From Patescibacteria group bacterium (GTDB lineage Bacteria; Patescibacteriota; Microgenomatia; UBA8517): a DNA stretch of 64,000 nt. The DNA lies in NCBI GenBank assembly GCA_038061225.1, contig JBBTZT010000003.1, positions 257,515-321,514 of the forward strand, read 5' to 3'. Both the position numbers and the translations under genes were made by a program. The notes beneath the pieces are model-generated. The model saw only the letters and a program-made list of their open reading frames with translations, ran no database searches and was not told where the DNA came from. Below, piece by piece: positions 8,068 through 31,416 of this stretch. Each line of letters begins with the position of its first letter. Position 1 is the stretch's first letter.

Positions 8068-8114
8068 TACAACTATAGTATTTATATTTATTATTTCTTT
8101 GTCAATAGTTATAT

Positions 8115-8762
8115 ATGAAAATTAATCAAAACACTTCCAAATTTTGGGGTAACAAGATTTTTGAACAATTTACAACAATCATCAAAAGTCCAATATACAA
8201 ACATAAATTAAAATTAGTTTTTAACGAAATTAAAAATGGAAAAGGTAATATTTTAGATGTTGGTGTCGGTTATGGGTTTATAGAAGATTTAATAGTTAAA
8301 AATAATCTCAATTTTAATATGAGTGGGTTAGATATTTCTAAACAAATAATTATTAATGCAAATAAAAAATACAGAGGTAAATTTATAGTTGGAAATATAA
8401 CAAAAATAAAATTCATTGATAACCAATTTGATTATGTTTTAGCGTTAGATATCTTAGAACATTTATCTTCTGAGGAATTAAATAAAGGATTAGGTGAGAT
8501 ATATAGAATTATGAAAAGCAATGGTAAATTAATTATTTCAGTTCCATTAAATGAAAATGATCATGATTCAAAACAAAATCATCATATACAAAAATTTAAT
8601 CTAGAAAAAATTATTAAAACACTAAAAAAATCAAATTTTTTGGTAACAAAAAAATATGAATTAATTTCTTACAAAAAATATTATTTTTTGAAAAACGTAA
8701 TTAATAGAATAGTAAAACTGTCAAAACCAAACCTTCTTATTTTAATTTGTAAAAAGGAATGA
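8115..8762 (+). CDS. class I SAM-dependent methyltransferase (type 11-like)
   Basis: Motif I ILDVGVGYGF, motif II-like DYVLALDILEHL, and SNGKLIISVP. Confidence 0.65.
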   Translation: MKINQNTSKFWGNKIFEQFTTIIKSPIYKHKLKLVFNEIKNGKGNILDVGVGYGFIEDLIVKNNLNFNMSGLDISKQIIINANKKYRGKFIVGNITKIKFIDNQFDYVLALDILEHLSSEELNKGLGEIYRIMKSNGKLIISVPLNENDHDSKQNHHIQKFNLEKIIKTLKKSNFLVTKKYELISYKKYYFLKNVINRIVKLSKPNLLILICKKE

Positions 8763-9574
8763 AAAACAGAAATATACTTTTCATAGCAAAACAAAAATGG
8801 CCACATATTGGTGGGGTGGAAAGGCATATTGAGGGGATAGCGAATAGGTTACAGGGGACAGATAACAAAGTAACAACAGTTTCTGAAGAGGATATAAAAC
8901 CACCGCACACTAAAATTTTAGGACTTTTATATATTTGGTATTGGTTATTTAAAAACAGACATTTAATAGCCACGTCAGACGTGGTGCATATACATGATGT
9001 TTTTATTTGGTATATACCTTTTAGGTTTATTTTTCCAAAGAAAAAAGTATATATAACTTTTCATGGATGGGAGGGAAAATGGCCACTCCCGATGTGGGCA
9101 ATATTAAACAAACGCGTTGCTAACTTTTTATGTAATGGCAGTATTGCAGTTGGTATATATATTGAGAAATGGTATGGAATAAAAGCTACATACACCACAT
9201 ACGGTGGTGTAGATATAAGATGTATGATCAAAGATGTAAGAAAAACAAAAAAAACAATTGTTTTTTTAGGTCGACAAGATAATGATACTGGAATAAAAGA
9301 ATTTAAAGAATGGCTATTAAAACAAGAAGTAAAATATTCAGTTAAATATATAACTAATAGTCTATACCCTGAAAAATATTTAAAAACTGCAGAGTATTGT
9401 GTTCCATCTGGTTATTTATCTTACCTTGAAGCAAAAAGTTTTGGATGTAAAATACTAACTTTTCCAAACAACCCATTAAAAATTGATTATTGGAAAGAAA
9501 TACAAAATATTAATAAAATTCCAACTTGGTCAGAAGTAGCTGATATTTATATAAAATTATGGCAAAACAACTAG
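8759..9574 (+). CDS. compact glycosyltransferase, GT1/GT4-like
   Basis: N-terminal NILFIAKQKWPHIGGVERHI and C-terminal SYLEAKSFGCKILTF (the E-x7-E-like GT1 motif). Confidence 0.5.
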   Translation: MKNRNILFIAKQKWPHIGGVERHIEGIANRLQGTDNKVTTVSEEDIKPPHTKILGLLYIWYWLFKNRHLIATSDVVHIHDVFIWYIPFRFIFPKKKVYITFHGWEGKWPLPMWAILNKRVANFLCNGSIAVGIYIEKWYGIKATYTTYGGVDIRCMIKDVRKTKKTIVFLGRQDNDTGIKEFKEWLLKQEVKYSVKYITNSLYPEKYLKTAEYCVPSGYLSYLEAKSFGCKILTFPNNPLKIDYWKEIQNINKIPTWSEVADIYIKLWQNN

Positions 9575-11620: not shown

Positions 11621-12110
11621 TATTATCGACTTCGCAGAAGCGAGAAACGACTTATTAAAAAAATCAAAGACTGACTGGGTTTTATTTTTGGATAGTGACG
11701 AGAAAATCGATAGTTACTATTTGAAACGCAAAAACTACTTTCTAGGTCAATATGTAGGAACAGACAAGATAATCAGACTTGTCAAAAAAGGAACAGGAAA
11801 ATTTGCTCGTGCAGTTCATGAGATTTGGATTCCTAATGAAAAACACAAAATTGGAATTATCAAAGAAAAAATAATTCATAATACTGCCGATAATTTAAGA
11901 GACTATATGAAAAAAATGAATTATTATAGTGATTTACATGCAAAAGAAAATTTAAAAGAAGGAAAAAGATCCACGCTATATAAAATTATATTTTTTCCAA
12001 TTGCAAAGTTTTTTGTTAGCTTAATAAAATCAAAACACATTGTTTTTAGTATAATGCAATCATTGCATTCATATCTTTCATGGACAAAATTATATTTTTT
12101 ACAGCACTAG
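11589..12110 (+). CDS. short glycosyltransferase family 2-like protein
   Basis: WVLFLDSDEKID (DxD-type motif); 173 aa; may be N-terminally truncated. Confidence 0.4.
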   Translation: MLSTFTLNKPNIIDFAEARNDLLKKSKTDWVLFLDSDEKIDSYYLKRKNYFLGQYVGTDKIIRLVKKGTGKFARAVHEIWIPNEKHKIGIIKEKIIHNTADNLRDYMKKMNYYSDLHAKENLKEGKRSTLYKIIFFPIAKFFVSLIKSKHIVFSIMQSLHSYLSWTKLYFLQH

Positions 12111-15078: not shown

Positions 15079-15780
15079 ATGTCATTGCTACCGTTTATAA
15101 AAGATGATGATTTTATATCAGAGGTAAAAAAAGTTTTAGAGGTGGATAAAAATGATTCAAGAAAAAACAAGTCAATAAGAAATTCTATAGACCCTTTTTC
15201 AGCAATATTTGATGCATCAATTCAAAGCATCCCGATTAATTTGTGGTTTGAACTTGAGGCTAGAAGACAATCTCAAAAAACCCTTCAAAATAAACTTGGA
15301 TTATTTCATCAGAATATATTAGGCCATGTAAGAGGGTGGATCAACTTAAATACTGGAAAGGTAGTTGATTTACTAAACACCAAAAAGAAGGTAATTGCTG
15401 AAGTTAAAAACAAATTTAACACAACTAAAGGTTCAGATAAAGTTCAAATTTATGATAACATCAAATTTTTATTAGATACAAAATACAAAGGATATGTTGG
15501 TTACTATGTTGAAGTGATACCACAAAATAAGAAAATGTACGATTCTGAATTTACTCCATCAGATAATAAGATCAAAAAAAGAAGACCAAGAAACAAAAAT
15601 ATTAGAATCATAGACGGATCCAGTTTCTATGACTTAGCTACAGGATATAATGACTCATTGTTTATGTTGTATATGGCAATACCAGAAGCTATTACAAAGA
15701 TATTAAAAATTCCTGTAATGAATATTCTAGGCAAGAACGAAATGCTAGAACTTTATAAAGAGGTATATCAAACAAAGTAA
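15079..15780 (+). CDS. putative Type II restriction endonuclease (PD-(D/E)XK-like)
   Basis: 233-aa ORF immediately upstream of a C5-MTase gene. Candidate catalytic motif VVDLL-x9-AEVKNK (D...ExK). No database match could be run. Confidence 0.45.
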   Translation: MSLLPFIKDDDFISEVKKVLEVDKNDSRKNKSIRNSIDPFSAIFDASIQSIPINLWFELEARRQSQKTLQNKLGLFHQNILGHVRGWINLNTGKVVDLLNTKKKVIAEVKNKFNTTKGSDKVQIYDNIKFLLDTKYKGYVGYYVEVIPQNKKMYDSEFTPSDNKIKKRRPRNKNIRIIDGSSFYDLATGYNDSLFMLYMAIPEAITKILKIPVMNILGKNEMLELYKEVYQTK

Positions 15781-15818
15781 CCATTGCATAATGTATTGGT
15801 TATTGATATATTTTATTC

Positions 15819-17114
15819 ATGGATAACTTGCTCACTGTTTCAGATGCGGCCGAATTGGTTGGAGTTTCTACCGATACAATTCGAAGATGGGAAAAGGTTG
15901 GACTTCTTAAATCTCATCGTTCGGAACATAATTATCGTCTTTTCAATTTTGAGGAAATTCAAAGAGTTAGAAATAAAATTAATGGTAGTGATCAGATTAA
16001 CAATTATAAAATTCTCAAAAGCAACAAAACGACTAAATATACAACAATAGAATTGTTTACAGGAGCTGGAGGTACAGCTTTAGGGTTAGAAAATGCAGGA
16101 TTAAAACATTTATTAAATGTTGAATTCGATAAAGATGCAATAAACACAATAAAAAATAATAAACCTGAATGGAACTTAATTGGTAACGATATTTCAGAAG
16201 TTGATTTTAATTCATGGAAAAATAAAGTTGACGTAGTCGAGGGTGGATTTCCATGCCAGTCTTTTAGTTACGCAGGAAAAGGGAAAGGATTCGGAGATAC
16301 TCGTGGTACTTTGTTTTTTGAATTCGCCCGTTGTGTTAAAGAAACAATGCCAAAAATAGCAATTGGTGAAAATGTTAAAGGTTTATTAAGACATGATAAT
16401 GGTAAAACATTATCTACTATGGTTAAAAAACTTCAAGATATTGGTTACAAAGTTGGTTATAAAGTTTTAAGGTCTCAATACCATGATGTACCACAGAAAC
16501 GAGAGAGATTGATAATTATTGGGATAAGAAATGATTTAAATATACCAATGTTAGTTCCAAGAGAAAAAGACTATTACATTTCTATAAAAGAGGCACTAAA
16601 AAATGTTCCTTTATCAAAAGGACAAAATTATCCTGAAAAGAAGAGAAAGGTTTTAGATTTGGTTCCTCCCGGAGGTTGTTGGAGAAATTTACCGCTTGAT
16701 ATTCAAAGAGAATATATGGGCGCTAGTTTTTATTTAGGTGGGGGTAAAACAGGAATGGCAAGAAGACTGTCTTTTGATGAGCCATCATTAACGCTTACTT
16801 GTTCTCCTGCCCAGAAGCAAACTGAAAGATGTCATCCCGTTGAAACAAGACCTTTTACCGTGCGTGAATATGCCAGAATACAAACTTTTCCTGACGATTG
16901 GGAATTTTGTGGTTCTTTGACTTCCCAGTATAAACAAATTGGAAATGCAGTCCCTGTTAACTTAGGTTTTCATATTGGGGAGGCTATAATTGCTATGTTA
17001 CAAAATAAGTATGATTTAAATGATATGGAAATAATCGAGCCTGTAATTTTAGAAAATAATGAAAATCATATATTAAGTAACAACTTTTTATATGTCCAAG
17101 AAAACATATTTTAA
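15819..17114 (+). CDS. DNA (cytosine-5)-methyltransferase with an N-terminal MerR-like HTH domain
   Basis: Motif I ELFTGAGGTALG, motif IV GGFPCQSFS, ENV, motif X QIGNAVPV. The N-terminus LLTVSDAAELVGVSTDTIRRWEKVGLL is a MerR/excisionase-type HTH. Confidence 0.9.
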   Translation: MDNLLTVSDAAELVGVSTDTIRRWEKVGLLKSHRSEHNYRLFNFEEIQRVRNKINGSDQINNYKILKSNKTTKYTTIELFTGAGGTALGLENAGLKHLLNVEFDKDAINTIKNNKPEWNLIGNDISEVDFNSWKNKVDVVEGGFPCQSFSYAGKGKGFGDTRGTLFFEFARCVKETMPKIAIGENVKGLLRHDNGKTLSTMVKKLQDIGYKVGYKVLRSQYHDVPQKRERLIIIGIRNDLNIPMLVPREKDYYISIKEALKNVPLSKGQNYPEKKRKVLDLVPPGGCWRNLPLDIQREYMGASFYLGGGKTGMARRLSFDEPSLTLTCSPAQKQTERCHPVETRPFTVREYARIQTFPDDWEFCGSLTSQYKQIGNAVPVNLGFHIGEAIIAMLQNKYDLNDMEIIEPVILENNENHILSNNFLYVQENIF

Positions 17115-17395: not shown

Positions 17396-17510
17396 AAAGA
17401 TCATTATTAAATTTAATTCAATCCTATATTTAAATAAAATAAGATGTTAAGATTAGAATTGCGTCTCAGAAGAAATTAAGGATTAGATTGTACTATTTTC
17501 CATAATTTTG

Positions 17511-17581
17511 AGCTGGTGAGTGTAATCGAAACACTGTCGATGGTTTACGATACCACTGCTCTACCACTGAGCTACACCAGC
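17511..17581 (-). tRNA. tRNA-Thr (anticodon CGU)
   Basis: The reverse complement reads GCTGGTGTAGCTCAGTGGTAGAGCAGTGGTATCGTAAACCATCGACAGTGTTTCGATTACACTCACCAGC. Anticodon loop ATCGTAA; T-loop TTCGATT. Confidence 0.85.
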
Positions 17582-18553: not shown

Positions 18554-19585
18554 ATGTCAAACGTAATAAAATGCAAGAATTGTGGAACTGAAATAGATGT
18601 TGGAGAGCAATTGGCTCATGATATTAAAGAATCTGTTGTTCTTGAGGAAAGAAAAAAAGCACAAGAAGAAGTAGATATTGTACGACGAAAGTTCAATACT
18701 GATATGGGCAAGCTTCTTGACGAAATTAAAACTTTGCGTGAGAAAGATCAAATGAGAGATTTGGAAATGAAGAAAAAACTTCTAGAAAGTGAGGAAACAA
18801 TTAAAAATGATTTAAAAATTAAACTTGAAGATGAACATAGATTAAAAGATTTGGAAAATTATAAGAAAATGCAAGATGTTTTGAAAGCTAATGAAGAATT
18901 AAAAAGAAAATTAGAACAAGGATCACAACAAACACAAGGTGAAGTATTAGAACTAACTATAGAGAAAAAATTACGTCAGGATTATCCACAAGATGAAATA
19001 AAAGAAGTTAAAAAGGGAGTAAAAGGAGCTGATGTTATCCAAATTGTTATTGATAAAAAAGGGCAAAAATGTGGAAGCTTACTTTGGGAATCAAAAAATG
19101 CTAAGTGGAGTGAAACATGGATAACAAAACTTAAAGAAGATCAAAGACAGGCCAAGGCAGACCTAGCTATACTTGTCTCAGTTGATTTGCCAGAAGACAT
19201 TAAAGAAAAAGGAATTGGTTATAAAAACGGTATTTGGATATGTGGTGCAACTAATTTTAATCAACTGGCAATGTCTTTAAGATTTAATTTAGTTAATATT
19301 TACTATGAAAAACAAAACGCTGTAGGAGTAGATGAGAAAATGAAAGTACTATATGAGTATTTAACAGGAAATGAATTTAAACATAGAGTAGAGGGAATTG
19401 TGGAAGCTTTTGGAACACTTCAGGACGACATCGAAAGAGAAAAAAGGTGGTTTAGTGCAAAATGGGCAAGACAAGAAAAAGAAATTAGAAAAGTAATTGA
19501 TCATACACATGGAATGTATGGTGATCTTCAAGGTGTTACAGGTAGGGCACTTCCTGAAATAAAATCATTGGAATTAGAAGAATAA
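18554..19585 (+). CDS. DUF2130-like protein: N-terminal CxxC, long coiled coil, C-terminal restriction-endonuclease-like (PD-(D/E)XK-like) domain
   Basis: CKNCGTEI at the N-terminus; an E/K-rich heptad region about 100 aa long; C-terminal GADVIQIV...LLWESKNAKWS (D...ExK-like). Assigned to DUF2130 from memory of the family architecture. Confidence 0.45.
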   Translation: MSNVIKCKNCGTEIDVGEQLAHDIKESVVLEERKKAQEEVDIVRRKFNTDMGKLLDEIKTLREKDQMRDLEMKKKLLESEETIKNDLKIKLEDEHRLKDLENYKKMQDVLKANEELKRKLEQGSQQTQGEVLELTIEKKLRQDYPQDEIKEVKKGVKGADVIQIVIDKKGQKCGSLLWESKNAKWSETWITKLKEDQRQAKADLAILVSVDLPEDIKEKGIGYKNGIWICGATNFNQLAMSLRFNLVNIYYEKQNAVGVDEKMKVLYEYLTGNEFKHRVEGIVEAFGTLQDDIEREKRWFSAKWARQEKEIRKVIDHTHGMYGDLQGVTGRALPEIKSLELEE

Positions 19586-19627: not shown

Positions 19628-20624
19628 ATGACAACTTCTAAAATTAAAATTCAAAATAATACTTTCAAAGAAGTGATGATTTACCAGACTCCAGACAAGA
19701 GTGTAAAAGTCGAGATTTATTTAAAGGATGAAAATTTATGGCTAACTCAGATTAGAATAGCTGAATTGTTTGGCGTTGAAAGAAGTGTTGTCACAAAGCA
19801 TTTAAAGAATATTTTTTATGAACGAGAGTTAGATTTAAAAAGCAATGTGCAAAAAATGCACATTGCTAAGTCTGATAAACCAGTTAAATACTATAATCTT
19901 AATGTAATTATTGCTGTTGGGTATAGAATCAACTCAATTAAGGCCACAAAATTTCGTATTTGGGCTACTCAAGTTTTAAAGGAATACATAGGACGATGAA
20001 AGATTAAAAGATCCTGATCAAATATTTGGTAAGGATTACTTTGAAGAGCAGCTCGCGAGAATCAGAAATATCCGTTCAAGCGAGAGAAGGATGTATCAAA
20101 AGATTACTGATATCTATGCAGAATGCAGTGCCGACTATGATCCAAATAGTGATATGACCAAAGACTTTTTTGCTACAGTTCAGAATAAACTGCATTTTGC
20201 TATTACTGGTCAAACCGCCGCAGAAATTATAGCTAAGAGAATTGGTAATAAAAAGTTAAATATGGGATTAACAAATTGGAAAAATGGACCAAAAGGCAAA
20301 ATTAGAGAAACTGATGTGGTAATTGCAAAGAATTATTTAAATGAAATAGAGCTGGATAAATTAAACAGAATTGTAACTGTTTACTTAGATTATGCAGATA
20401 TGATGGCAAAAGATAGGATTGTTATATATATGGAAGATTGGATCAAGAAACTGGATGCTTTTCTTAAATTTAGTGAGAAGGACATACTTTCAGATAATGG
20501 AAAAGTAAGTTATGAAGTTGCAGAACAATTGGCATTGGGAGAATATAAAAAGTTTAGAATTAAACAAGACAAAAATTATATCTCAGATTTTGATAGAGAA
20601 GTTAAAAAACTTTTAAAAAAATAG
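19628..20624 (+). pseudogene. rhuM: rhuM-family (virulence RhuM) gene disrupted by a frameshifting deletion
   Basis: ORF 19628-19999 carries the RhuM N-terminal part (...QIRIAELFGVERSVVTKHLKNIF...). ORF 20091-20624 carries the C-terminal part (YQKITDIYA...). The +1-frame translation of the gap (DDERLKDPDQIFGKDYFEEQLARIRNIRSSERR) is also RhuM. About 14 nt encoding IKGFVL appear to be missing at about 19990. Confidence 0.75.
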
Positions 20625-21263: not shown

Positions 21264-24200
21264 ATGTATACGCCGAATAAATCAATTATTGATAATGATA
21301 AAATTAAGCTCTTTACAGAGTTAAAGAACATTCTTAATGACCAGCCTAGCAACTTTGACGTAGCTACCGGCTATTTTAATGTTGGAGGCTTCGAGTTAGT
21401 CGCCCAAGAAATAAAAAATGTCAAAAAGTTCAGATTATTACTTGGAAAGTCACCAAGTGTTGATGACAAGTTGGTACCGGATTTATTCGAGCCAGTAGCG
21501 TTTTATAAGACCAATCTTAAAGAAGACCTCGAAAACGAAGAATTTACCTCTAAAAAGTCTCAGGCGGTCAAAAACCTCATAGCTTTTCTTGAAAAGCAGG
21601 ATGTTGAAGTTAAACTACTGGAAAAACCCTTTCTTCATGGCAAGGCTTACATTTTTAATGATCTGGCTATCATTGGCTCTAGCAACTTCACTTATTCGGG
21701 ACTTGCCGGCAATACAGAATTAAACGCAGTGCTCATTGATCCGCACCCCGTTTATCTTAAAAAAGAATGGTTTGATAAGTTTTGGGAGCAAGCCCGCGAT
21801 TTTAAGCAAGAGCTTATTGAAATCCTCAAAAGCTCAAAGTTAGGTACAAGGGAATACTCGCCTTACGAAGTTTATATTAAAGCGCTCTATGAACTTCAAA
21901 AGAAAGAGCTGGAACCTACGGAAGCCCCCAGAAACGAGCGTTTGCCCGAAAGCGTAGTAGATTTAGCAACATTTCAAGAAGACGCGGTTAATCGTGTGTA
22001 CTCATCGCTCACCAACTATAATGGCGTCTTAGTTGCTGATTCTGTCGGTCTTGGTAAAACATGGATTGCAAAAAAAGTCATTGAGGACTTTGGTTTTTAT
22101 AGAAGACGTAAGTTCTTGGTTATATGTCCAGCTTCACTTCACCGAATGTGGCAAGCTGAGCTTAAAGACTTGGGTGTTTCAGAAAATATCATCCATCAAG
22201 AGTATTTAGGAGGAGAAGGCTTGGACTTTGAAGATTTAGAGAAACGCCATCAGATAAAGTTTGCCGATATCTCCCTCATTGTAATTGACGAGTCTCACAA
22301 CTTCAGAAATCCCATATCTAACCGCTATGAAAACCTTTTTTCACTTATAGAAAAAATTCGCTCATTCGGTAAAACCCCAAAGGTAATTTTAATGACTGCA
22401 ACTCCAATGAATAACACTATTTGGGACTTTTACTTTCAACTTATGCTTATTGGTCAAAACAATAAGCGCATGTTTATTAAGCAAGGAATTTTTGACTTGC
22501 AAAAAGAGTTTAGCAAAGCCCAGAAAGGAAATACCAACCACATTAACGATGTTTTGCAATCAATCTCCATTCGTAGAACACGCCAATATATTAGAGAAAA
22601 CTACAAAGATGCAAAATTCAAAACAGAGACAGGGGAATACAAAAAGATTGAATTCCCAGATAGAAAACTGGAAGAAGTACACTATTCTCTTGATAAAGCC
22701 TATGATGGCCTCTATGCCGAGATTTCGCGCAAGATAGAAGCCGATTTGACTCTTGCTTACTACAAACTCTCCGAGTACAAAGTATCCGAGAAAAAAGATT
22801 TAGTAGAAGTCCACAGAGGACAGGCTTTAGCCGGTATCTTCCAAACAGTTCTTCTAAAAAGATTGGAAAGTTCAGTCGAGGCATTTCGCAAAAGCGTTAA
22901 AAGCCACAAAGAGTTCTTGGGTGAATTTAAAAATGTTGTCCAGAAAGGGAAAATACTACGCAAAAAGTTCTTCCTAAAATACATAAACAGTTTAGATGAA
23001 TCAATCGAGGATATAGATGGCTTGGGAGACTTTGGTAATAGCTTGGAAGATATAGACCTTAAAGACTACGACAAAGAGAAGATGTTTGCTGATATTGACC
23101 AAGATATTAAGGTTTTTTCAACTATTTATGAAGATATAAAAAATATAGATGAAAGCCAAGATGCAAAACTTATTAAATTTAAGGAACATTTACTCAAAAA
23201 TCTTAAAGAGGAAAAAGCCGTTATCTTCTCCTACTACTCCGACACTGTTAAGTATGTCGCTCAAGCATTAGATAAAGATGAGGATTTTAAGAAAAAGTAT
23301 GGTAAGAAGATAGCTTTCATTACTGGTGCTAATTCTTCAAACGAGCGCCAGACTATTATTGAAGATTTCTTAAACGGCAAGACAAATGTTGTTATTTCAA
23401 CCGATATTCTCTCCGAAGGTCAAAACTTGCAACAAGCAAAAACAGTTACTAATTACGATTTACATTGGAATCCGGTGAGAATGATTCAAAGAGCGGGAAG
23501 AATTGACCGTATTGGTACCCCTTTCAAAGAAATTATTATCTATAACTTTTACCCAGAGGATGAGTTGGAATCGCTCCTTGATCTAGTAGAAACCTTACAG
23601 AAAAAAATTATGATGATTAACGATACCATTGGTCTTGACGCCTCTGTTTTAGGTGAGCAGATAAACCCTAAAGTATTTGGTATTATACGGGACTTAAAAA
23701 GTGAGGAAGAAGAAACGAAAGATAAGACAATGGAACTTTTGGAAGCCGAGCAGTTCGGAGGCGGAGAACTTTTCTTCCAGCCCCTGAAAAACTTTGGACT
23801 GGATAAACTCCCCGCGTTTGCCGATGGTTTGCCTCACGGAATACAAAGTGGACTAAAGAAGGGTTATAGAGGCATTTTCTTTTATTTCCAGTATGCAGAG
23901 GAGTATCACTTCTGGTACCTGTACGATTTAATTGACAAAGAATTTAAAACCAACAAGACAGAAATTTTAGACTTTATAGCCTGCAAGCAAGTTGAGCGTC
24001 GAGTTGTCCCCGAAGATTACGATGTTTATTCAGCTCACGATGAAGTAAAAAATCGTATTGCAGAGCTTTTTAATGAAACAAGGTTTGAGGTTGAAATGCG
24101 TACTCCCTCCGGTAAGAAAGAAAAGTTTTTAATTGATATGCGGGATGAATTGGAACATATAAAAACAGAGGTTTTGTTTGAAGAAGATCAAAAGGAGAGA

Positions 24201-24431
24201 ACAAAAATAGAAGAAATTGTTACTAAGATAAACGAGGTCAACTTTACTAAAAAGCGTTTGCAGTATTTAAGGCGTTCTTGGCAGGCTTACAAAAAATCAC
24301 ATCAGAACTGGCGAAAACTGGTTGCAGAGCTTGGTGACTTTTTAGCGGACAAGGTTGAAACACCAACAGAAATTATTGAGGAATTTAATGACAAGAAACT
24401 CAAACTTATTTGCGTTGATTATATTTCATGA
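21264..24431 (+). CDS. fusion of an N-terminal PLD-family (HKD) nuclease domain and an SNF2-family helicase
   Basis: PLD motif FLHGKAYIFNDLAIIGSSNFT (HxK..D..GSxN). SNF2 motifs LVADSVGLGKTW (I), VIDESHNFRN (II), LMTATPMNN (III), ISTDILSEGQNLQ (V) and NPVRMIQRAGRIDRIG (VI). Confidence 0.85.
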   Translation: MYTPNKSIIDNDKIKLFTELKNILNDQPSNFDVATGYFNVGGFELVAQEIKNVKKFRLLLGKSPSVDDKLVPDLFEPVAFYKTNLKEDLENEEFTSKKSQAVKNLIAFLEKQDVEVKLLEKPFLHGKAYIFNDLAIIGSSNFTYSGLAGNTELNAVLIDPHPVYLKKEWFDKFWEQARDFKQELIEILKSSKLGTREYSPYEVYIKALYELQKKELEPTEAPRNERLPESVVDLATFQEDAVNRVYSSLTNYNGVLVADSVGLGKTWIAKKVIEDFGFYRRRKFLVICPASLHRMWQAELKDLGVSENIIHQEYLGGEGLDFEDLEKRHQIKFADISLIVIDESHNFRNPISNRYENLFSLIEKIRSFGKTPKVILMTATPMNNTIWDFYFQLMLIGQNNKRMFIKQGIFDLQKEFSKAQKGNTNHINDVLQSISIRRTRQYIRENYKDAKFKTETGEYKKIEFPDRKLEEVHYSLDKAYDGLYAEISRKIEADLTLAYYKLSEYKVSEKKDLVEVHRGQALAGIFQTVLLKRLESSVEAFRKSVKSHKEFLGEFKNVVQKGKILRKKFFLKYINSLDESIEDIDGLGDFGNSLEDIDLKDYDKEKMFADIDQDIKVFSTIYEDIKNIDESQDAKLIKFKEHLLKNLKEEKAVIFSYYSDTVKYVAQALDKDEDFKKKYGKKIAFITGANSSNERQTIIEDFLNGKTNVVISTDILSEGQNLQQAKTVTNYDLHWNPVRMIQRAGRIDRIGTPFKEIIIYNFYPEDELESLLDLVETLQKKIMMINDTIGLDASVLGEQINPKVFGIIRDLKSEEEETKDKTMELLEAEQFGGGELFFQPLKNFGLDKLPAFADGLPHGIQSGLKKGYRGIFFYFQYAEEYHFWYLYDLIDKEFKTNKTEILDFIACKQVERRVVPEDYDVYSAHDEVKNRIAELFNETRFEVEMRTPSGKKEKFLIDMRDELEHIKTEVLFEEDQKERTKIEEIVTKINEVNFTKKRLQYLRRSWQAYKKSHQNWRKLVAELGDFLADKVETPTEIIEEFNDKKLKLICVDYIS

Positions 24432-24434
24432 GTT

Positions 24435-27400
24435 ATGGGAACAAATATAGACTTAGACGAATTTTTGCCAACAATGGATGCACCGGACAAGGTGTATCAA
24501 CTTTTCGAATCTCTTGGTTTTAAGGTACTCGATTCTCACCTCAAGACAAACCCGTCAGTTTATAACTTACCGGTCAAAGAAGCCGCATTAGTTGAGAAGA
24601 TTTATGCAGTCTCAAATTATGACCGCCGTTTTCAGATTCTTTTATTTAAACTCAAAGAGGAAAACAAAGAAGCAATCCGTACAATACCGGAGAAAATTTT
24701 ACGCGAGGTAGACTTCCCTTTCATTATCTTTACCCCAGATTTTAAGACTTACACTTTTACTCTTGTTGAAAAAGTCCGTGAGGGACCCGGAGAGTTCAAA
24801 CGCAAACTCACAAAACTTGTAGTTGATAGCAGTCAGCCCTATCACACGGACAAAGAAATACTAGGAAGCCTTGCGCTATCTGTTGATACCAAAAACCCCG
24901 TTGAGGTTTATAAAATGTTTCAAAGCGCTTTTAGCGTTGAGAAAGTCACTAAGAAATTCTTTACCGAATATCGGGAAGTTTTTGAAAGATTAGTAGGAGA
25001 AGTTACTAAGCAGAATAAGCACCTGAAATTTACGCTTTTTTCCAGAGATGCTTCTGTAGAAAACTTTGTCAAAATACTTTTAGGTCGTTTAATGTTTCTC
25101 TACTTTATACAAAAGAGGGGCTGGCTTAACTGCTTTGATGGTTGGGGTAGCGGAGATAAAAAGTTTCTCTATAATAAATTTCAAGAGGCAAAGAAAGAAA
25201 AGAAAAACTATTTTAAGGATTACCTCGAACCGCTTTTCTTTGACACTCTCAACAATCCCCGCCGCGATAAGCCAGATCAAGCAACACAGTTTGGCGGTAG
25301 AATCCCTTTCCTAAACGGAGGACTATTTGAACCAGAGTACGACTATCAAGATGTAAGAAATCACATACTTTTAGAAAACTCCACCTTTGATGATGTTTTC
25401 TCGGTTTTTGAGAAATATAACTTTACTGTTAAAGAGGATGAGCCGCTTGAAAAAGAAGTAGCCATTGACCCTGAAATGTTGGGTAAGGTTTTTGAAAATC
25501 TCTTGGAGGAAAACTTACGTAAAGGCAAGGGCACGTATTACACCCCTCGAGAAATCGTCCACTACATGTGCCATGAAAGCCTTATAAACTATCTGGCTTC
25601 CGAAGTTAGCCTAGATCAAGATGTGATAAGGAATTTCTTGGATCGTGAGCAGTCCCTAGAAAAGAAGGAAACTTTAAGTTCTGCTATAAGAGAGAAAGCA
25701 AAGGAAATAGACGAAAAATTAGCTGATATTAAGGTTTTAGACCCTGCCTGCGGTTCTGGCGCTTTCTTGGTTGGTATGCTCCACGAAGTTATAAATGCCC
25801 GCCTAAGTCTTAATCGGGAGCTTGGGCGCAGTCTCTCGGAGTATGAAGTTAAAAAAGCAACAATTCAAAATAATATCTATGGTGTAGATATTGACCCCGG
25901 AGCTTCTGAAATTGCCAAACTTCGTTTATGGTTGACACTTGTTGTTGACCACAATCTCTCCGAAATAGAACCGCTCCCTAATCTTGACTATAAAATTATG
26001 GTCGGTAATTCACTACTCGATGAATTTATGGGCGTAAAACTCTTTAATCCCGAGAACGCAAAAGCTCAAGCAAATGGTAAGAAAATGATTAGTCTTTTTG
26101 ACGAAGATTCACAAGTTTCACTCTTTGAAAATGATGATAAAAAAACAAGTGTCCTAAAAGCCTTGCAAGGGCTACATGCTTTATATTTCAAAGAGTCTGA
26201 CCCCGAAAAGAAGAAGCAAATTAGAACTCAAATAGACAAGATTGAGTTTGATCTTATCGAGGCAACTGTTAATGATGAAGTATCACAACTGGAAAGAAAA
26301 ACTAAAGGAATTGTTGAACCGTATTTGTCTCATGGTATAGGAATTCCAGCGAAAGAAGCGGAGAGAATTTCAAAACTAAGTTCTCAACAAGGACAGATTT
26401 TAGAAACTTTTAATGAGATAAAGAAAAGTAATGTTAAACCATTTTTCTTGTTTCAACTCCATTTCTCCGATGTTTTTGAAAAGAAAGGCGGGTTTGATAT
26501 TGTTATCGCAAACCCACCTTATATGAAAGAGAGAGATAATAAAAAGGTTTTTGAAATAGTCAATAATTCTAGTTTTGGTAAAAAGTATCATCAAGGGAAA
26601 ATGGATTACTGGTATTATTTCTTGCATAAAGCTATTGATATCACAAAAGATAACGGGTTCATCTCCTATATAACGTCTCGGTACTGGATAAATAGTTATG
26701 GTGCAAAAAAACTTATTGAAAGAGTTAATAAAGAGTTATCTTTTGTAAACTTCGTTGATATTGGTAAGTTGAAGGTATTTGATGAAGTAGCTGGCTACCA
26801 TATGATTGCTGTTTATAAAAAGACAGTAGATATTGATCTGTTTACTTATAAAAAACTTCAAAACGAAATTAGTGATATAAGTAAAAGTTCTAATACTGAA
26901 AACCTAGAAATAAAAACATTATCAAAGAAGGAAATATTTACTGATAATGACGAGATTATTTTGGAAACCGATGGTTTAAAATATGATAATGTTGTTTTAT
27001 TAGGTTCAATCGCAGATACCTCGGTTGGAGTTCAAGAATCCCCTGACAAAATTAATAGTAAGCTCCTTCTAAGTGCAAAGCGAACAGATATATCTGTTGG
27101 TGATGGTGTTTTTGTTTTATCGCAAAAAGAATTAGATAACCTACGGCTAAAAGAGATTGGCCGACTGCCAATAATTAAAAAATATTTAGACCCTAATGAT
27201 GTGTACCGTTATCGAGTTAGTTGGAAAAGTAAGTATCTCATTTATTCTGACAATAAAATTAAGGAGGACATTAAAAGTAACAAGGAATACATTAGTATCA
27301 AGAATCATTTAGACAAATTTAGAGAATTTATTTCCTCTTCAAACAAGCCTTACGGGTTACATAGATCACGCGACATAAAGTATTTTATAGAACCCAAGAT

Positions 27401-27827
27401 TATATTTAAAAATATGTTTATCATGCCCGATTTTACCTACGATGATAAAGGATACTTTTTTGGATTTTCTTTTTCTTCAATAATTCAAAAAGATAAAACT
27501 TTTGACTTGAAATACATTCTAGGTATTTTAAATTCAAAAGTTGCATTTAATTGGTTCCAAAAGAACGGAAAAAGAAGGGGTGCTGGGTTTGATATTGGTG
27601 TTGAAAAACTAAGGCTTTTTCCGATCAAGAAAATTACGCTCCAAGAACAAAAACCAATTATCGAAATTGTCGACAAACTTCTAGATATCACAAAAGATGG
27701 TGATTATTTACAAAACCCCACAAGGCAAACTCAAGTTAAAGACTACGAAAAGCAAATTGACCAGTTAGTTTATAAACTCTATGGCCTAACGCCGGAGGAA
27801 ATTTTAGTTGTGGAGGATCAAAAATGA
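24435..27827 (+). CDS. large gamma-class N6-adenine DNA methyltransferase with a C-terminal TRD-like region (type IIG/Eco57I-like, PglX/DrmMI-like)
   Basis: Motif I VLDPACGSGAFLVGM followed by motif IV VIANPPYMKE (gamma order). N-terminal helical region with ILLGRLMFLYFIQKRGWL. C-terminal YKLYGLTPEEILVVE, typical of the type IIG/PglX family. 1130 aa. Confidence 0.85.
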   Translation: MGTNIDLDEFLPTMDAPDKVYQLFESLGFKVLDSHLKTNPSVYNLPVKEAALVEKIYAVSNYDRRFQILLFKLKEENKEAIRTIPEKILREVDFPFIIFTPDFKTYTFTLVEKVREGPGEFKRKLTKLVVDSSQPYHTDKEILGSLALSVDTKNPVEVYKMFQSAFSVEKVTKKFFTEYREVFERLVGEVTKQNKHLKFTLFSRDASVENFVKILLGRLMFLYFIQKRGWLNCFDGWGSGDKKFLYNKFQEAKKEKKNYFKDYLEPLFFDTLNNPRRDKPDQATQFGGRIPFLNGGLFEPEYDYQDVRNHILLENSTFDDVFSVFEKYNFTVKEDEPLEKEVAIDPEMLGKVFENLLEENLRKGKGTYYTPREIVHYMCHESLINYLASEVSLDQDVIRNFLDREQSLEKKETLSSAIREKAKEIDEKLADIKVLDPACGSGAFLVGMLHEVINARLSLNRELGRSLSEYEVKKATIQNNIYGVDIDPGASEIAKLRLWLTLVVDHNLSEIEPLPNLDYKIMVGNSLLDEFMGVKLFNPENAKAQANGKKMISLFDEDSQVSLFENDDKKTSVLKALQGLHALYFKESDPEKKKQIRTQIDKIEFDLIEATVNDEVSQLERKTKGIVEPYLSHGIGIPAKEAERISKLSSQQGQILETFNEIKKSNVKPFFLFQLHFSDVFEKKGGFDIVIANPPYMKERDNKKVFEIVNNSSFGKKYHQGKMDYWYYFLHKAIDITKDNGFISYITSRYWINSYGAKKLIERVNKELSFVNFVDIGKLKVFDEVAGYHMIAVYKKTVDIDLFTYKKLQNEISDISKSSNTENLEIKTLSKKEIFTDNDEIILETDGLKYDNVVLLGSIADTSVGVQESPDKINSKLLLSAKRTDISVGDGVFVLSQKELDNLRLKEIGRLPIIKKYLDPNDVYRYRVSWKSKYLIYSDNKIKEDIKSNKEYISIKNHLDKFREFISSSNKPYGLHRSRDIKYFIEPKIIFKNMFIMPDFTYDDKGYFFGFSFSSIIQKDKTFDLKYILGILNSKVAFNWFQKNGKRRGAGFDIGVEKLRLFPIKKITLQEQKPIIEIVDKLLDITKDGDYLQNPTRQTQVKDYEKQIDQLVYKLYGLTPEEILVVEDQK

Positions 27828-28855
27828 AAGCAGCAGAAAAACCAAAATATGTTCAAGAAGCACGGAAGTTACTAACTTCAATTGACATTAACCATTTGAT
27901 TTCAAACCCTAATGACCTCAGGGAAATAGACAAAATTAATCGTCTAGTAGCTATTTTTACTAACTTTTCTTCCAATGATGGTCAAGAATTGAAAAGACTC
28001 TTTCAAGAATTTCAAGAGACAGGAAGACGTAGTACTAGTTCGGGAACTATCAAAAATAGAGCCGTAGATGTAATCCAATTTATTGGCCAGAAGATTGAAG
28101 AAATGGATATTTATGTTATAGAACCTGATGAGAAACCACTATTAGAGACGCTGGAAAAATTAAGAAAAATTCAAAAACTAATTCAGGAAGGTTTAGCTCG
28201 GAGTGATGAAAAAACACAAATTATACGGGAGGCTCAAGAAAAATCTAAGTTGTTTAAGGACGATATCTACAAAAGGAAAGCGGAAAAGCTTTCAAAACAG
28301 ACCGTTTGGTCAAAGCAGAGTCATGATGGTTTCGTGGCCGCAGATGAATATGGCCAATTAACTCCTTGGATAGAATTGCTTGAAGATTATTTGGGAGAAG
28401 AAAAGCTCTTAATAAGAGAAAAGGTTATTGAAGATACAACCCCGTATGAAGGAAGAAAATTTCTGAGGTCTATCTTAGAGAAGGCTAACAATGAAGTGGT
28501 TGTGGTTGATAATTTTCTTTCCCACGAGATTTTGGCAATTATTGAACCATATGTATTAAAGGGGGTAGGCTTTAGGTTACTGACACGACAGGCGCACAAT
28601 AGTAAATTTAGGAGTTTTACAGCTGATTATAAAGTCTTTAGACTTCAGCACCAAAATAAAATAGCCGCCAAGGAAAACAAAAAATGCCATGACCGCTTTG
28701 TGATGGTTGATGGTCATATCATATATCATTTCGGAGCCAGCTTAGTTGAATTGGGAAATACCTTATCTGTGGCTCATTTAATTGAAGATCAAAAAGAGAA
28801 AGATAAACTGTTATCTAAATTTACCGATTGGTGGGATACGGGAAAGGACGTTTAA
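27824..28855 (+). CDS. hypothetical protein with a C-terminal degenerate PLD-like (HxRxxxxD...GAS) domain
   Basis: C-terminal HDRFVMVDGHIIYHFGASLVELGN aligns with HxKx4Dx6GSxN but has K->R. Preceded by VVVVDNFLSHEILAIIE. The N-terminal 200 aa are helical and unknown. Its start overlaps the MTase stop by 4 nt. Confidence 0.45.
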   Translation: MKAAEKPKYVQEARKLLTSIDINHLISNPNDLREIDKINRLVAIFTNFSSNDGQELKRLFQEFQETGRRSTSSGTIKNRAVDVIQFIGQKIEEMDIYVIEPDEKPLLETLEKLRKIQKLIQEGLARSDEKTQIIREAQEKSKLFKDDIYKRKAEKLSKQTVWSKQSHDGFVAADEYGQLTPWIELLEDYLGEEKLLIREKVIEDTTPYEGRKFLRSILEKANNEVVVVDNFLSHEILAIIEPYVLKGVGFRLLTRQAHNSKFRSFTADYKVFRLQHQNKIAAKENKKCHDRFVMVDGHIIYHFGASLVELGNTLSVAHLIEDQKEKDKLLSKFTDWWDTGKDV

Positions 28856-28867
28856 GTTTTAATAATC

Positions 28868-30313
28868 ATGGATATTACAGATATCACTGGCTATACATTA
28901 AAAAATCTTAGCAAAATTAACATTGTTTTAGGGAAAAATGGTTGCGGTAAAAGCACACTGTTACGATCAGTTGAACAAGGTTTATCTTCGCAATCGCAGT
29001 CGTATGGAAAAACAAAATACATAACACCGGAAAGAGGAGGATCTCTTATTTATGAAGCTGGTATTGAACAGAGTTTAACAACCGATATAAATTGGCTTTC
29101 AGGTCAAAGGAGAAAAAATCAAGCTGTTGGTTTTAGACAACAAAGCGTAGCTCAGTATCGCAGACTTGAAACTTTGGTATTAAGAGAAATAGAAAAGGAA
29201 AAACGACAACAAAACGATTACACCTTCGACATTTATGTTAATAAAATCAACTCTTTGCTTGACAATATTGAAATAAAAAGACATGATATGACTTTCAAAA
29301 TATACCATAGAGGAACAATCAATGAATTAGGGGCAGAAGTAATCAGCAGTGGCGAAAGCGAACTGATTTCCTTGGGTATTGAATGTTTAATTTTTGGCAA
29401 AGAGTGTATTCCGGACAAAGAAAATATTTTATTTTTAGATGAGCCAGACGTACATTTACACCCAGATTTACAGGTTCGTTTAATGAATTTCCTAGAAGGT
29501 TTGGTTTCGGATAGTAACTTCAAAGTTTTAATTGCCACACACAGTACTGCTATTTTGGGAGCGTTGGAAACTTACACTGATACTCACTTGGCGTTTATGT
29601 CCTTTGAGCAGAAAGAGCTAAACTTTAGAGAAATTTCAGCAGTTTATAGAAAAGTTCTGCCCGTTTTTGGAGCACACCCCTTGTCTAATATTTTCAACGA
29701 AGCACCAATCTTACTTGTTGAAGGTGAGGATGACGAAAGAATTTGGCAACAAGCTGTCCGATCTTCTAATGGCACTATTAAATTATATCCCTGTTCTGTA
29801 GATAGTGTGAGTAATATAAACGATTTTGAACAGGAAGCAAAAGAGATTATTCAATCTGTTTATGACAAAGCCAAAGGTTATTCATTGAGAGATAAGGACA
29901 ATAACACTGAAGAAATCAATGATCTGCCGCCGATAATCAGAATGAGACTAGCATGCAGAAACTCGGAAAACCTTTTGCTTACGGACGAGGTACTTGGAGC
30001 ACTTAATATAACATGGGATCAACTTAAAGAGCGTATTGATATTTGGTTGAGTACCAATACACAACATCCTCACTTTTCGGTTATGAATGGGTTTAAGGAA
30101 GGCGGATACGATAGAAGAAACTTTGATATTAAAGAAGTGCGTAACGATTTAATGGGTGTTGTTGGAAGCGCAAAACCTTGGGAAGTTGTAGTGGGTCAAT
30201 CAATTTCAAGTCTGACTTGGGATGACAGTTCTAATTTTGAGGAAGATGGAAAAATTCTATCCTTTCTTGGACGAAAGATTACAGAAAATCTTATCCCTAA
30301 ATCGAGTAGATGA
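28868..30313 (+). CDS. OLD-family ATP-dependent endonuclease (AAA_21/ABC-type ATPase + TOPRIM)
   Basis: Walker A GKNGCGKSTLL; signature-like ISSGESEL; Walker B ILFLDEPDVHLHPD; TOPRIM-like ILLVEGEDDERIW with downstream acidic residues (VDSVSN). Confidence 0.75.
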   Translation: MDITDITGYTLKNLSKINIVLGKNGCGKSTLLRSVEQGLSSQSQSYGKTKYITPERGGSLIYEAGIEQSLTTDINWLSGQRRKNQAVGFRQQSVAQYRRLETLVLREIEKEKRQQNDYTFDIYVNKINSLLDNIEIKRHDMTFKIYHRGTINELGAEVISSGESELISLGIECLIFGKECIPDKENILFLDEPDVHLHPDLQVRLMNFLEGLVSDSNFKVLIATHSTAILGALETYTDTHLAFMSFEQKELNFREISAVYRKVLPVFGAHPLSNIFNEAPILLVEGEDDERIWQQAVRSSNGTIKLYPCSVDSVSNINDFEQEAKEIIQSVYDKAKGYSLRDKDNNTEEINDLPPIIRMRLACRNSENLLLTDEVLGALNITWDQLKERIDIWLSTNTQHPHFSVMNGFKEGGYDRRNFDIKEVRNDLMGVVGSAKPWEVVVGQSISSLTWDDSSNFEEDGKILSFLGRKITENLIPKSSR

Positions 30314-30358
30314 CATAAGGTTAAAGTAAAAGGGTTAAGGTTATTAACAAATTAGTAA

Positions 30359-31006
30359 ATGAATAACTTATTTATTTTCCAGTTACCTATAGATTTAGCC
30401 TCATCACTTACTGGAGGTGCTATTGGGTTAATATTAGCTTTTGGACTTTACCTTTTTGATAAGTCAATTAACCCCGACCTAGAAATACAGATAGCCGATC
30501 CGTCAAAACTATCATTGGCTCAAGGTGAATTTAAGTCTCTAAATTTAAAAATAATTAACAAAAAGAGAGACGGCATTTTACGATTTTTGAATAGATCAGC
30601 AACTCAAGTTAAGGTATTTCTTTACTTTTCAGACTTTTCTTCAAGAGTGCTTATGAATACAGTGATAGCTAGGTGGAACAATAGTCGAGAACCGCTAACT
30701 CCGGATTATAAAAATGTTGATCTTGGACTTGCTCTTACACACCCTAGAGAGGTTCTCGTACCTGGTGATGAAAATGAAATCTCTGTGGCTATTCGGAAAA
30801 AAGATAATAGATACTGCTTCCCTTTCAGCAACGAAAGCTACATATATCAAAGTAAAGACTTTGAGGTTCCTGGTTGGAAAATTGAAGATGATAAATTTGT
30901 CGTTACTGTGCGCATACAGTCAGCTGAAGTTGATAAAATGGGTGGCGTGTTTATTGTGCTAAATAAAAGTACATTAGAGCAGTTTAAGATCGAAAAAATA
31001 GGATAA
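30359..31006 (+). CDS. hypothetical membrane-anchored protein (single N-terminal TM)
   Basis: 215 aa; TM at about 17-33 (LTGGAIGLILAFGLYLF); no motif. Lies 45 bp downstream of the OLD-family gene. Confidence 0.4.
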   Translation: MNNLFIFQLPIDLASSLTGGAIGLILAFGLYLFDKSINPDLEIQIADPSKLSLAQGEFKSLNLKIINKKRDGILRFLNRSATQVKVFLYFSDFSSRVLMNTVIARWNNSREPLTPDYKNVDLGLALTHPREVLVPGDENEISVAIRKKDNRYCFPFSNESYIYQSKDFEVPGWKIEDDKFVVTVRIQSAEVDKMGGVFIVLNKSTLEQFKIEKIG

Positions 31007-31041: not shown

Positions 31042-31302
31042 ATGAAACGAATTGATGCATACGCACTCGCTAGATTTCTTATATTAGTTGCCTTGCTTAT
31101 TGGTGTCATCTATACGGGTTCTAAAATTGACACTCTTAGCAAGCGACTAGAAAGAATTGAGGCAAAACTTGGTGGTCCCGAAAAAATCGGTTGTAATGAG
31201 AAGGATTCTATCGAGAAAGTTCGCCAGTCTGTTGTCCGGATTGTAGGCGGAGAGGGCGAAGGTTCTGGTTTATCACCGTATGGAGCAGTGGACCGGATTT
31301 GA
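31042..31302 (+). CDS. small membrane protein; possible N-terminal remnant of a trypsin-like (HtrA-type) protease
   Basis: TM helix, then ...VRQSVVRIVGGEGEGSGL, resembling the start of an S1C protease domain. The ORF's last ~22 nt (including its stop codon) overlap the tRNA-Gly 3' end. Confidence 0.3.
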   Translation: MKRIDAYALARFLILVALLIGVIYTGSKIDTLSKRLERIEAKLGGPEKIGCNEKDSIEKVRQSVVRIVGGEGEGSGLSPYGAVDRI

Positions 31303-31355
31303 ACCGGCGACCTTCTGCTTGGGAAGCAGACATTCTACCGCTGAACTACCACTGC
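31281..31355 (-). tRNA. tRNA-Gly (anticodon CCC), CCA encoded
   Basis: The reverse complement reads GCAGTGGTAGTTCAGCGGTAGAATGTCTGCTTCCCAAGCAGAAGGTCGCCGGTTCAAATCCGGTCCACTGCTCCA. Confidence 0.85.
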
Positions 31356-31393: not shown

Positions 31394-31416
31394 TTATCGC
31401 TGAACTACCACTGCTG
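31394..31416. repeat. partial direct repeat of the tRNA-Gly 5' end (17 nt identical: GCAGTGGTAGTTCAGCG), about 40 bp upstream of the tRNA
   Basis: cgctgaactaccactgc occurs at 31339-31355 (in the tRNA) and again at 31397-31413. Confidence 0.6.

Follow-up and report, generated by a model that had tools for sequence, protein, structure and literature searches.

The window analysed here, a 64,000-nucleotide stretch of contig JBBTZT010000003.1 from a Patescibacteria group bacterium, carries a gene for a 481-residue protein that is probably a stand-alone, single-polypeptide ATPase-nuclease defence module of the OLD/PARIS superfamily. Comparison with its homologues suggests that the gene moves as a single-unit mobile cassette, lodged within restriction-modification (R-M) operons or at their 3' ends, and that, judging from its neighbourhoods, it needs no dedicated partner gene; in the window it sits within the tail of a system made up of a PLD-SNF2 helicase and a type IIG restriction-methylase. 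The gene is a new family-level addition to a known kind of defence protein, and a protein identical to its product is already on record as an 'AAA family ATPase' from a Patescibacteria genome. Directly downstream lies a gene for a 215-residue membrane-anchored protein, and an earlier note on this DNA had read the two together as a possible abortive-infection module. Both open reading frames (ORFs) lie where that note had placed them, and the motifs it quoted are present, but the pairing of the two genes is not borne out.

The Pfam matches AAA_15 (1.7e-16) and AAA_21 (1.4e-15) are confined to the N-terminal 230 residues, and this half is, by its motifs, a complete ABC-type (ATP-binding cassette) ATPase with Walker A, signature, Walker B and H-loop all present. 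The motifs comprise Walker A GKNGCGKS (K28, in the string LGKNGCGKSTLL at residues 21–32), PERGG, the signature SSGESE (160–165), Walker B LFLDEPD (D191 and E192, in the string LFLDEPDVHLHPD at residues 188–200) and the H-loop ATHS (H225). K28, SSGESE, D191-E192 and H225 do not change across 65 close homologues, nor across a set of 20 that reaches down to 34% identity, and because this invariance extends to such distant relatives the motifs cannot be put down to chance. In the AF2 model (pLDDT 82.9; about 90 in the C-terminal half), the fold is that of a minimal ABC ATPase of about 235 residues, in which the insert at 53–130 is short, partly of low confidence and contains one 22-residue helix; no long coiled coil is present in the ATPase half of the model.

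The C-terminal half is probably a TOPRIM-like domain and as such a predicted nuclease. Its modelled core runs through a strand (281–284), a helix (287–299), a strand (307–310), a helix (314–331) and two further strands (337–341 and 356–360) into a helical domain (366–475), and this half also holds a conserved linker, LPxFGAHPLS. The signature of TOPRIM domains is a Glu that directly follows strand 1 and a DxD that follows strand 3; the corresponding residues here are E285, in the string LLVEGEDDE (residues 282–290), and D342xD344. Eight residues (E285, G286, D288, P308, S339, D342, D344 and E367) do not vary across 32 diverse C-terminal halves, and the acidic ones among them (E285, D288, D342, D344 and E367) parallel the acidic set E26/D30/D88/E90/E122 of AriB (PMC11464382).

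When the ATPase and TOPRIM parts are taken together, the top Foldseek matches are the retron Eco8 OLD protein (7.9e-9) and GajA (2e-8 to 5e-8), over 456–466 alignment columns. These proteins, of OLD classes 3 and 2, share with the window protein the same two-domain order, whereas they depend on GajB or on a retron reverse transcriptase with its multicopy single-stranded DNA, neither of which is present at the window locus. The NCBIfam model for the retron Eco8 effector reaches 45 bits on the 481-residue protein against a cut-off of 250. A UvrD-type gene never adjoins the ATPase gene in the window or at any locus examined (the one in L041 lies 6 kb off on the opposite strand), Pfam finds no reverse-transcriptase domain in the genes neighbouring it at the same loci, and the protein has no separate DUF4435 partner, as the earlier note had said of both UvrD and DUF4435.

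To which branch of the superfamily the protein belongs is indicated by profile matches to its C-terminal half. For the whole protein the best PADLOC model is AriAB (2.6e-22, 77 bits), with a match that crosses the domain junction. On the C-terminal halves of 20 homologues, AriB is matched in 15 (best 1.2e-4) and AriAB in 12 (best 4.9e-5), weakly and consistently, while the Old and GajA models give zero matches on the same halves; Pfam DUF4435 (PF14491) appears below threshold in 14 of the 20 (best E 0.0025) and OLD-like_TOPRIM (PF20469) in three, at E 0.07 or worse. Merged PARIS is the single-gene AriAB, class 4 of the OLD family. Because AriB and AriAB match the C-terminal half and Old and GajA do not, we liken the 481-residue protein to merged PARIS and not to class 1 or class 2 OLD: by sequence, the nearest relatives of its TOPRIM-like half are the AriB/DUF4435 domains of PARIS rather than the classical OLD/GajA TOPRIM, and the family is best described as a compact relative of the merged, DUF4435-type ATPase-nucleases.

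A bridge between the two families is provided by a 544-residue Gloeobacter plasmid protein, which aligns with the window ATPase from Walker B to past the TOPRIM core (BLASTP 2e-13) and typifies a family of 550–600-residue ATPases in which 5 of 120 listed members carry PF14491 in precomputed annotation. An hhalign comparison of the window ATPase family with this Gloeobacter-type family (probability 99.3%, E 3e-20, 344 columns) extends from Walker A past the TOPRIM core and pairs VEGEDDE with VVEG, SLRDxD with LLDRD and ENLLL with IENFLL; it stops near residue 392, leaving the helical domain after the TOPRIM core unaligned. As candidate bridges to AriAB we also considered six 600-residue AAA_15 proteins taken from weaker genome matches, and rejected them since DUF4435 is absent from all six.

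The profile classification that the earlier note had proposed as a check thus gives AriAB for the whole protein and AriB for its C-terminal half, and leaves the protein outside the formal definitions of PARIS, class 1 OLD, Gabija and retron effectors. To detect PARIS, Rousset et al. (2022) require a DUF4435 (PF14491) score that reaches the Pfam cut-off of 27 bits; here DUF4435 stays below that cut-off in every member tested and the coiled-coil inserts of AriA are absent. The note's description of an OLD/GajA/AriAB-type ATPase-TOPRIM protein probably stands at the level of the superfamily, and is refined to its AriB/AriAB side.

A search with the C-terminal half among 1.84 billion representatives returned just 297 proteins (family representatives counted at 50% identity), nearly all of 470–500 residues with the domain at the same position, so that by these counts the family is small and sharply bounded, with a fixed architecture. 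Four proteins of 786–1153 residues (P0171, P0222, P0239 and P0267) carry the same C-terminal domain further down the chain, and may be fusions with extra N-terminal domains.

It is improbable, though not negligibly so, that the protein is instead a classical class 1 OLD of the P2 Old or Thermus OLD type, a non-specific DNA exo/endonuclease or a tRNA nuclease that is not tied to PARIS or to R-M systems and responds to a trigger such as RecBCD inhibition. Class 1 is defined by context as one gene whose product holds both the ATPase and the TOPRIM domain, and its members are described as lying away from other defence genes (PMC10568477). The window protein shares with class 1 members such as P2 Old, Thermus scotoductus OLD and Vibrio cholerae OLD the single gene, the single chain and the lack of a dedicated partner; moreover, PADLOC Old matches the whole protein at 2e-13, and OLD-type proteins are among the Foldseek matches. 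Against this reading, the C-terminal half is missed by the Old and GajA models and lacks the OLD-type TOPRIM signature, the inserted dimerisation domain is missing or cut to about 60 residues, and the protein is, as the earlier note had remarked, short for the class, falling about 50–100 residues below class 1 OLDs. The window family is also repeatedly found inside R-M operons, whereas class 1 genes are isolated.

This genomic setting was examined at about 30 ATPase loci outside the window lineage and in a set of 19 full-length loci that spans about ten phyla, and partners were sought by all-against-all BLASTP of the ORFs in 33 loci, by hmmsearch with a profile of the 215-residue protein and by pooled Pfam counts on 89 neighbours. 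No neighbour of the ATPase gene is conserved across the 19 full-length loci. The R-M operons that host the gene belong to types I, II, IIS, III and IIG, and in the R-M-nested candidate-phyla relatives it is co-oriented with an upstream gap of at most 13 nucleotides (nt). It ends a series of C5 methylase, 346-residue protein and Vsr in L039 (78% identity to the window ATPase), stands between the type III Mod and Res genes in L041 (66%), is placed within an HsdM–HsdS–ATPase–GmrSD–HsdR series in L012 (54%), and follows an AlwI system in L057 (80%) and a HinfI system in L058 (79%); the window and contigs L055 and L056 (99–100%) share the order PLD-SNF2, type IIG, 343-residue protein, ATPase. The remaining loci have AbiJ-like, T5orf172, RelA/SpoT, RhuM or integrase neighbours, or plain housekeeping genes.

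We note that a different protein occupies a similar setting on the Rhizobium plasmid pRL11 (L064, 2164–3999), where a 611-residue 'ATP-binding protein' that matches query residues 157–317 lies between a C5 methylase/hypothetical pair and Vsr, a type II R-M nesting as in L039.

Given its position in the window, the ATPase might be taken to belong, as a fixed subunit, to the PLD-SNF2 helicase and type IIG methylase system that precedes it, the whole acting as one Hma- or DISARM-like machine. The gene follows that of the 343-residue protein by 12 nt and precedes that of the 215-residue protein by 45 nt in the same orientation, and five plus-strand genes run unbroken from the helicase (21264–24431) through the 215-residue protein (30359–31006) in the ORF list. 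Promoter and terminator scans at the window locus gave results no better than those from shuffled sequence, so that the operon structure is read from these short gaps. The apparent co-transcription, the matches of the helicase to the PADLOC HmaA and DrmD models, and the preservation of the arrangement in L055 and L056 are all compatible with a subunit role. We nevertheless regard such a role as very unlikely, as at other loci the ATPase, at 54–80% identity, either stands free or is joined to R-M systems of types I, II, IIS and III that are unrelated to this one, and homologues of the helicase, the methylase and the 343-residue protein never accompany it elsewhere among the loci examined.

Across about ten phyla the ATPase family is patchy and horizontally scattered. 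Of 5426 complete Escherichia coli genomes, 28 carry a member (WP_000868467.1; 489 residues, 35% identical to the window ATPase across 97% of the latter). Its gene stands alone between yfgI and guaA, with an integrase fragment and a response regulator next to it (for example at 11965–13434 of L054, E. coli UPEC132, NZ_CP040456.1); we found no mention of this accession in the literature. In phage collections the ATPase has one weak INPHARED match and five at or near predicted provirus edges, and the 215-residue protein has zero; neither gene looks phage-borne.

Several points weigh against reading the protein as an R-M-associated ATPase-nuclease. On its C-terminal half the curated family models stay below their thresholds, with DUF4435 reaching 16.1 bits against 27 (E 0.0096), and PDB sequence searches that used the whole protein as well as two C-terminal-half profiles found no TOPRIM chain, returning AriA, the closest solved chain, and other ABC ATPases. 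The TOPRIM fold predicted for this half is one of topology in the model, not of domain-level superposition. At many loci outside the candidate-phyla clade the neighbours are housekeeping genes, because of which we describe the R-M link as frequent and not obligatory. The ATPase also lacks the coiled-coil inserts that AriA uses for hexamer assembly and trigger binding. Nor can the release mechanism of PARIS apply literally to a fused protein, and trigger, substrate and defence activity are predictions made by analogy.

Taken to their extreme, the sub-threshold models, the lack of a PDB sequence match and the loci with only housekeeping neighbours would fit a C-terminal domain that is no nuclease, in a housekeeping or regulatory ABC-type ATPase (for instance a RecF/SMC-like DNA-binding protein) that happens to reside in variable regions. 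We give this only a slim chance, considering the invariant acidic residues at the TOPRIM positions, the family-wide consistency of the sub-threshold AriB and DUF4435 matches, and a distribution that is patchy over about ten phyla, with 297 representatives in all and, in E. coli, sparse occurrence beside an integrase fragment.

The 215-residue protein has, in agreement with the earlier note, one hydrophobic transmembrane (TM) helix at residues 13–36 and no match in Pfam, PADLOC or NCBIfam. Its family is far smaller than that of the ATPase, with 23 homologues, all from candidate-phyla bacteria, compared with more than 1793. Its members trail, or sit embedded in, R-M systems of differing types: an N6_N4 methylase with DUF6996/6997 (L034); LexA, methylase and HNH, with TopA beyond (L036); a type I system with GmrSD and a 349-residue protein (L038); an EcoRI-type methylase with GmrSD/HNH and a 111-residue protein (L042); and a methylase with DpnII (L050). 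In L049, L045 and L046/47 the homologue stands between NYN and an HsdS-like gene, downstream of an HSDR_N_2/N6 methylase; this methylase has 648 residues and the HsdS-like gene is split in L049, the HsdS-like protein has 456 residues in L046, and a 104-residue ORF takes the NYN position in L047. A LexA gene lies directly 5' of two different R-M systems that each go on to carry a 215-residue homologue (L036, 6798–7442, and L049, 2704–3354; 66% identical), an arrangement that may represent a conserved hotspot bounded by lexA.

Outside the window lineage the two families do not meet. No homologue of the 215-residue protein is detected by hmmsearch at the ATPase loci, even where the ATPase is 78–80% identical (L039, L057 and L058), and the ATPase is absent from every other locus of the 215-residue family; the genes co-occur solely in the window, L055 and L056, these two contigs being 99% identical to it. 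The neighbourhood check that the earlier note had named, whether the 215-residue gene is kept beside the ATPase in other genomes, therefore comes out negative. L038 shows how the adjacency probably arose: its 349-residue protein (7955–9004) is 75% identical to the 343-residue protein of the window, the 215-residue proteins of both loci are 95% identical, and the 349-residue gene overlaps the start of the 215-residue gene by 4 nt with no ATPase gene between them, whereas in the window about 1.49 kb, with the ATPase gene in it, separates the two matching genes. Since the flanking genes are contiguous in L038, we read the ATPase gene as a 1.49-kb indel, and its adjacency to the 215-residue gene in the window as therefore the product of a cassette lying between two other genes.

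Adjacency, common orientation and a short gap in the window, L055 and L056, together with the frequency of TM proteins among defence effectors (PMC9122126), are all that would speak for a two-gene abortive-infection system with the ATPase-nuclease as sensor of infection and the TM protein as co-effector or anchor, and the disparity in family size, the mutual absence outside the window lineage and the ATPase-free L038 junction make it the least probable reading of all. Comparative sequence evidence makes the 215-residue gene a separate R-M-associated accessory gene, not a partner of the ATPase, and its family a previously undescribed one, R-M-linked in candidate-phyla bacteria. A protein from a 923-nt contig (P0143) that seemed to join an ATPase N-terminus to part of the 215-residue protein holds a different ATPase, and was set aside as a chimera or unrelated recombinant.

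Taking the protein, then, as a stand-alone ATPase-nuclease, its mode of action can be proposed from better-known systems. PARIS responds to the anti-restriction proteins Ocr and Ptr1/2 and cuts tRNA-Lys/Thr/Asn. Its AriA subunit recognises Ocr and then sets free AriB, the tRNA-cleaving nuclease (PMC11464382, PMC12409363). The window protein resembles the merged form in having an AAA_15/AAA_21-type ABC ATPase followed by a DUF4435-type TOPRIM domain in one chain, with an E/D/DxD(E)/E acidic set, and in its genomic placement near systems attacked by anti-restriction proteins. It differs in length (481 residues compared with the 694 positions of the AriAB profile) and in lacking the AriA inserts IS1 and IS2, which account for the hexamer and the trigger-binding pores.

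Among single-gene proteins, HEC-04 is an ABC ATPase-TOPRIM protein that is embedded in another defence system and protects against phage (bioRxiv 10.1101/2024.01.29.577857), and its defence requires Walker A K62 and TOPRIM E319/D375/D377 (Payne et al., same preprint). These residues have their counterparts, with identical residue spacing and an offset of 34, in K28/E285/D342/D344 of the window protein. The HEC-04 TOPRIM domain has been compared with the OLD type (BpOLD), whereas the TOPRIM-like half studied here is nearest to AriB. As the HEC-04 profile is neither among the 25 best of the 143 PADLOC models that match the whole 481-residue protein (the lowest of these 25 at about 42 bits) nor among the matches of the C-terminal half, we consider the window ATPase to belong to a distinct sequence family. 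PrrC/RloC and AbiL (RloAB) likewise couple an ABC-type ATPase to a nuclease within hsd operons, and the PrrC nuclease is unleashed once a phage protein disables its R-M enzyme. PrrC differs in its anticodon-nuclease domain and AbiL in being made up of two genes with an RloB-type TOPRIM, and no sequence match of the window protein to PrrC/RloC or AbiL was seen.

By analogy with PARIS, PrrC and HEC-04, the minimal ABC ATPase half would serve as sensor and switch and the DUF4435-type TOPRIM half as a metal-dependent nuclease effector, which the ATPase would hold in check until it meets a phage cue. The likeliest such cue would be an anti-restriction protein, or some other signal that the R-M system next to it has been put out of action; that the protein senses anti-restriction proteins as such is a tentative suggestion by analogy, to which we assign less than an even chance. 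Because a fused protein cannot release its nuclease, we would expect an ATP-driven intramolecular or dimer rearrangement, and not subunit release, to free the TOPRIM site, which could then cut host tRNA, as do AriB and P2 Old, or DNA, as does GajA, so that translation or replication would halt and the infection would abort.

Single-chain ATPase-TOPRIM proteins recur in phage defence and are poorly understood, and the question has been raised whether one of them can defend alone and how it is switched on (PMC10568477). The minimal ATPase of this family would make it a simple case for studying the control of a fused TOPRIM nuclease by an ABC ATPase, with the E. coli member offering a tractable host in which to study the idea of an R-M back-up. 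The comparison also corrects a plausible mis-annotation, in that the downstream TM protein falls outside the ATPase module. A bolder reading, which we think rather unlikely, is that two independent 'guard' genes, the ATPase-TOPRIM gene and the 215-residue gene, have gathered at the tail of one restriction system. If this were true, the ATPase-TOPRIM protein might represent a mechanistically distinct, autoinhibited PARIS-type immunity that monitors neighbouring R-M enzymes, and anti-restriction sensing would be general to R-M operons even in reduced candidate-phyla genomes. The 215-residue protein would then stand for a membrane-tethered beta-sandwich family linked to at least 7 different R-M systems, and could be an envelope-level defence or R-M accessory that, for example, excludes DNA or localises restriction at the point of entry.

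Table 1. Features of the window around the ATPase gene, with positions counted from the first nucleotide of the window.
Feature	Positions	Strand	Basis
481-residue ABC ATPase with DUF4435-type TOPRIM-like domain (probable stand-alone module)	28868..30313	+	ORF list, Pfam, PADLOC
ATPase half of the 481-residue protein, residues 1–237	28868..29578	+	
C-terminal half of the 481-residue protein, residues 238–481	29579..30310	+	
1.49-kb indel carrying the ATPase gene, relative to the contiguous L038 pair (limits approximate)	28862..30352	+	junction alignment
215-residue membrane-anchored beta-sandwich protein	30359..31006	+	TM helix 13–36
343-residue PDC-S05-like protein, upstream neighbour of the ATPase gene	27824..28855	+	PADLOC, Pfam
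PLD-SNF2 helicase and type IIG defence system hosting the ATPase gene in its tail	21264..27827	+	
1055-residue PLD (HKD) and SNF2 helicase	21264–24431	+	
1130-residue type IIG restriction-methylase, Eco57I/MmeI type	24435–27827	+	
tRNA-Gly(ccc), marking the island end	31281–31355	-	

The location of these genes at the end of a genomic island, as the earlier note had it, agrees with the GC content (0.35–0.39 at 21–31 kb compared with about 0.31 in the remaining window) and with the tRNA-Gly(ccc) gene that lies 275 nt past the end of the 215-residue gene. At this boundary an exact 17-nt direct repeat, CGCTGAACTACCACTGC, occurs at 31339–31355 and 31398–31414, one copy forming the 5' part of tRNA-Gly(ccc) and the other lying 43 nt past the tRNA, and may be a recombination scar; the 3' part of the tRNA occurs only once within the window. 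An 86-residue ORF with a hydrophobic N-terminus (31042–31302) overlaps tRNA-Gly on the opposite strand; it corresponds to a partial gene call in L055 and L056, has no family match and is probably spurious.

Defence genes are abundant throughout the 15–31 kb region of the window. A second R-M system, with an Eco47II-type endonuclease and a MerR-fused C5 cytosine methylase (15079–17114), adjoins tRNA-Thr (17510–17581), and is followed by a DUF2130 gene (18554–19585) and, just 5' of the helicase/methylase system, by a RhuM-family gene in two ORFs (19628–19999 and 20091–20624) that is probably a pseudogene. The 343-residue protein matches the PADLOC single-gene candidate PDC-S05 (8.5e-21) by way of a C-terminal domain that is weakly PLD-like (Pfam PLDc_2, 0.0034). 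Finally, the type IIG methylase has 1053 residues in the near-identical contig L055 (3799–6960) compared with 1130 in the window, a difference in length that suggests a variable region, perhaps one concerned with specificity.

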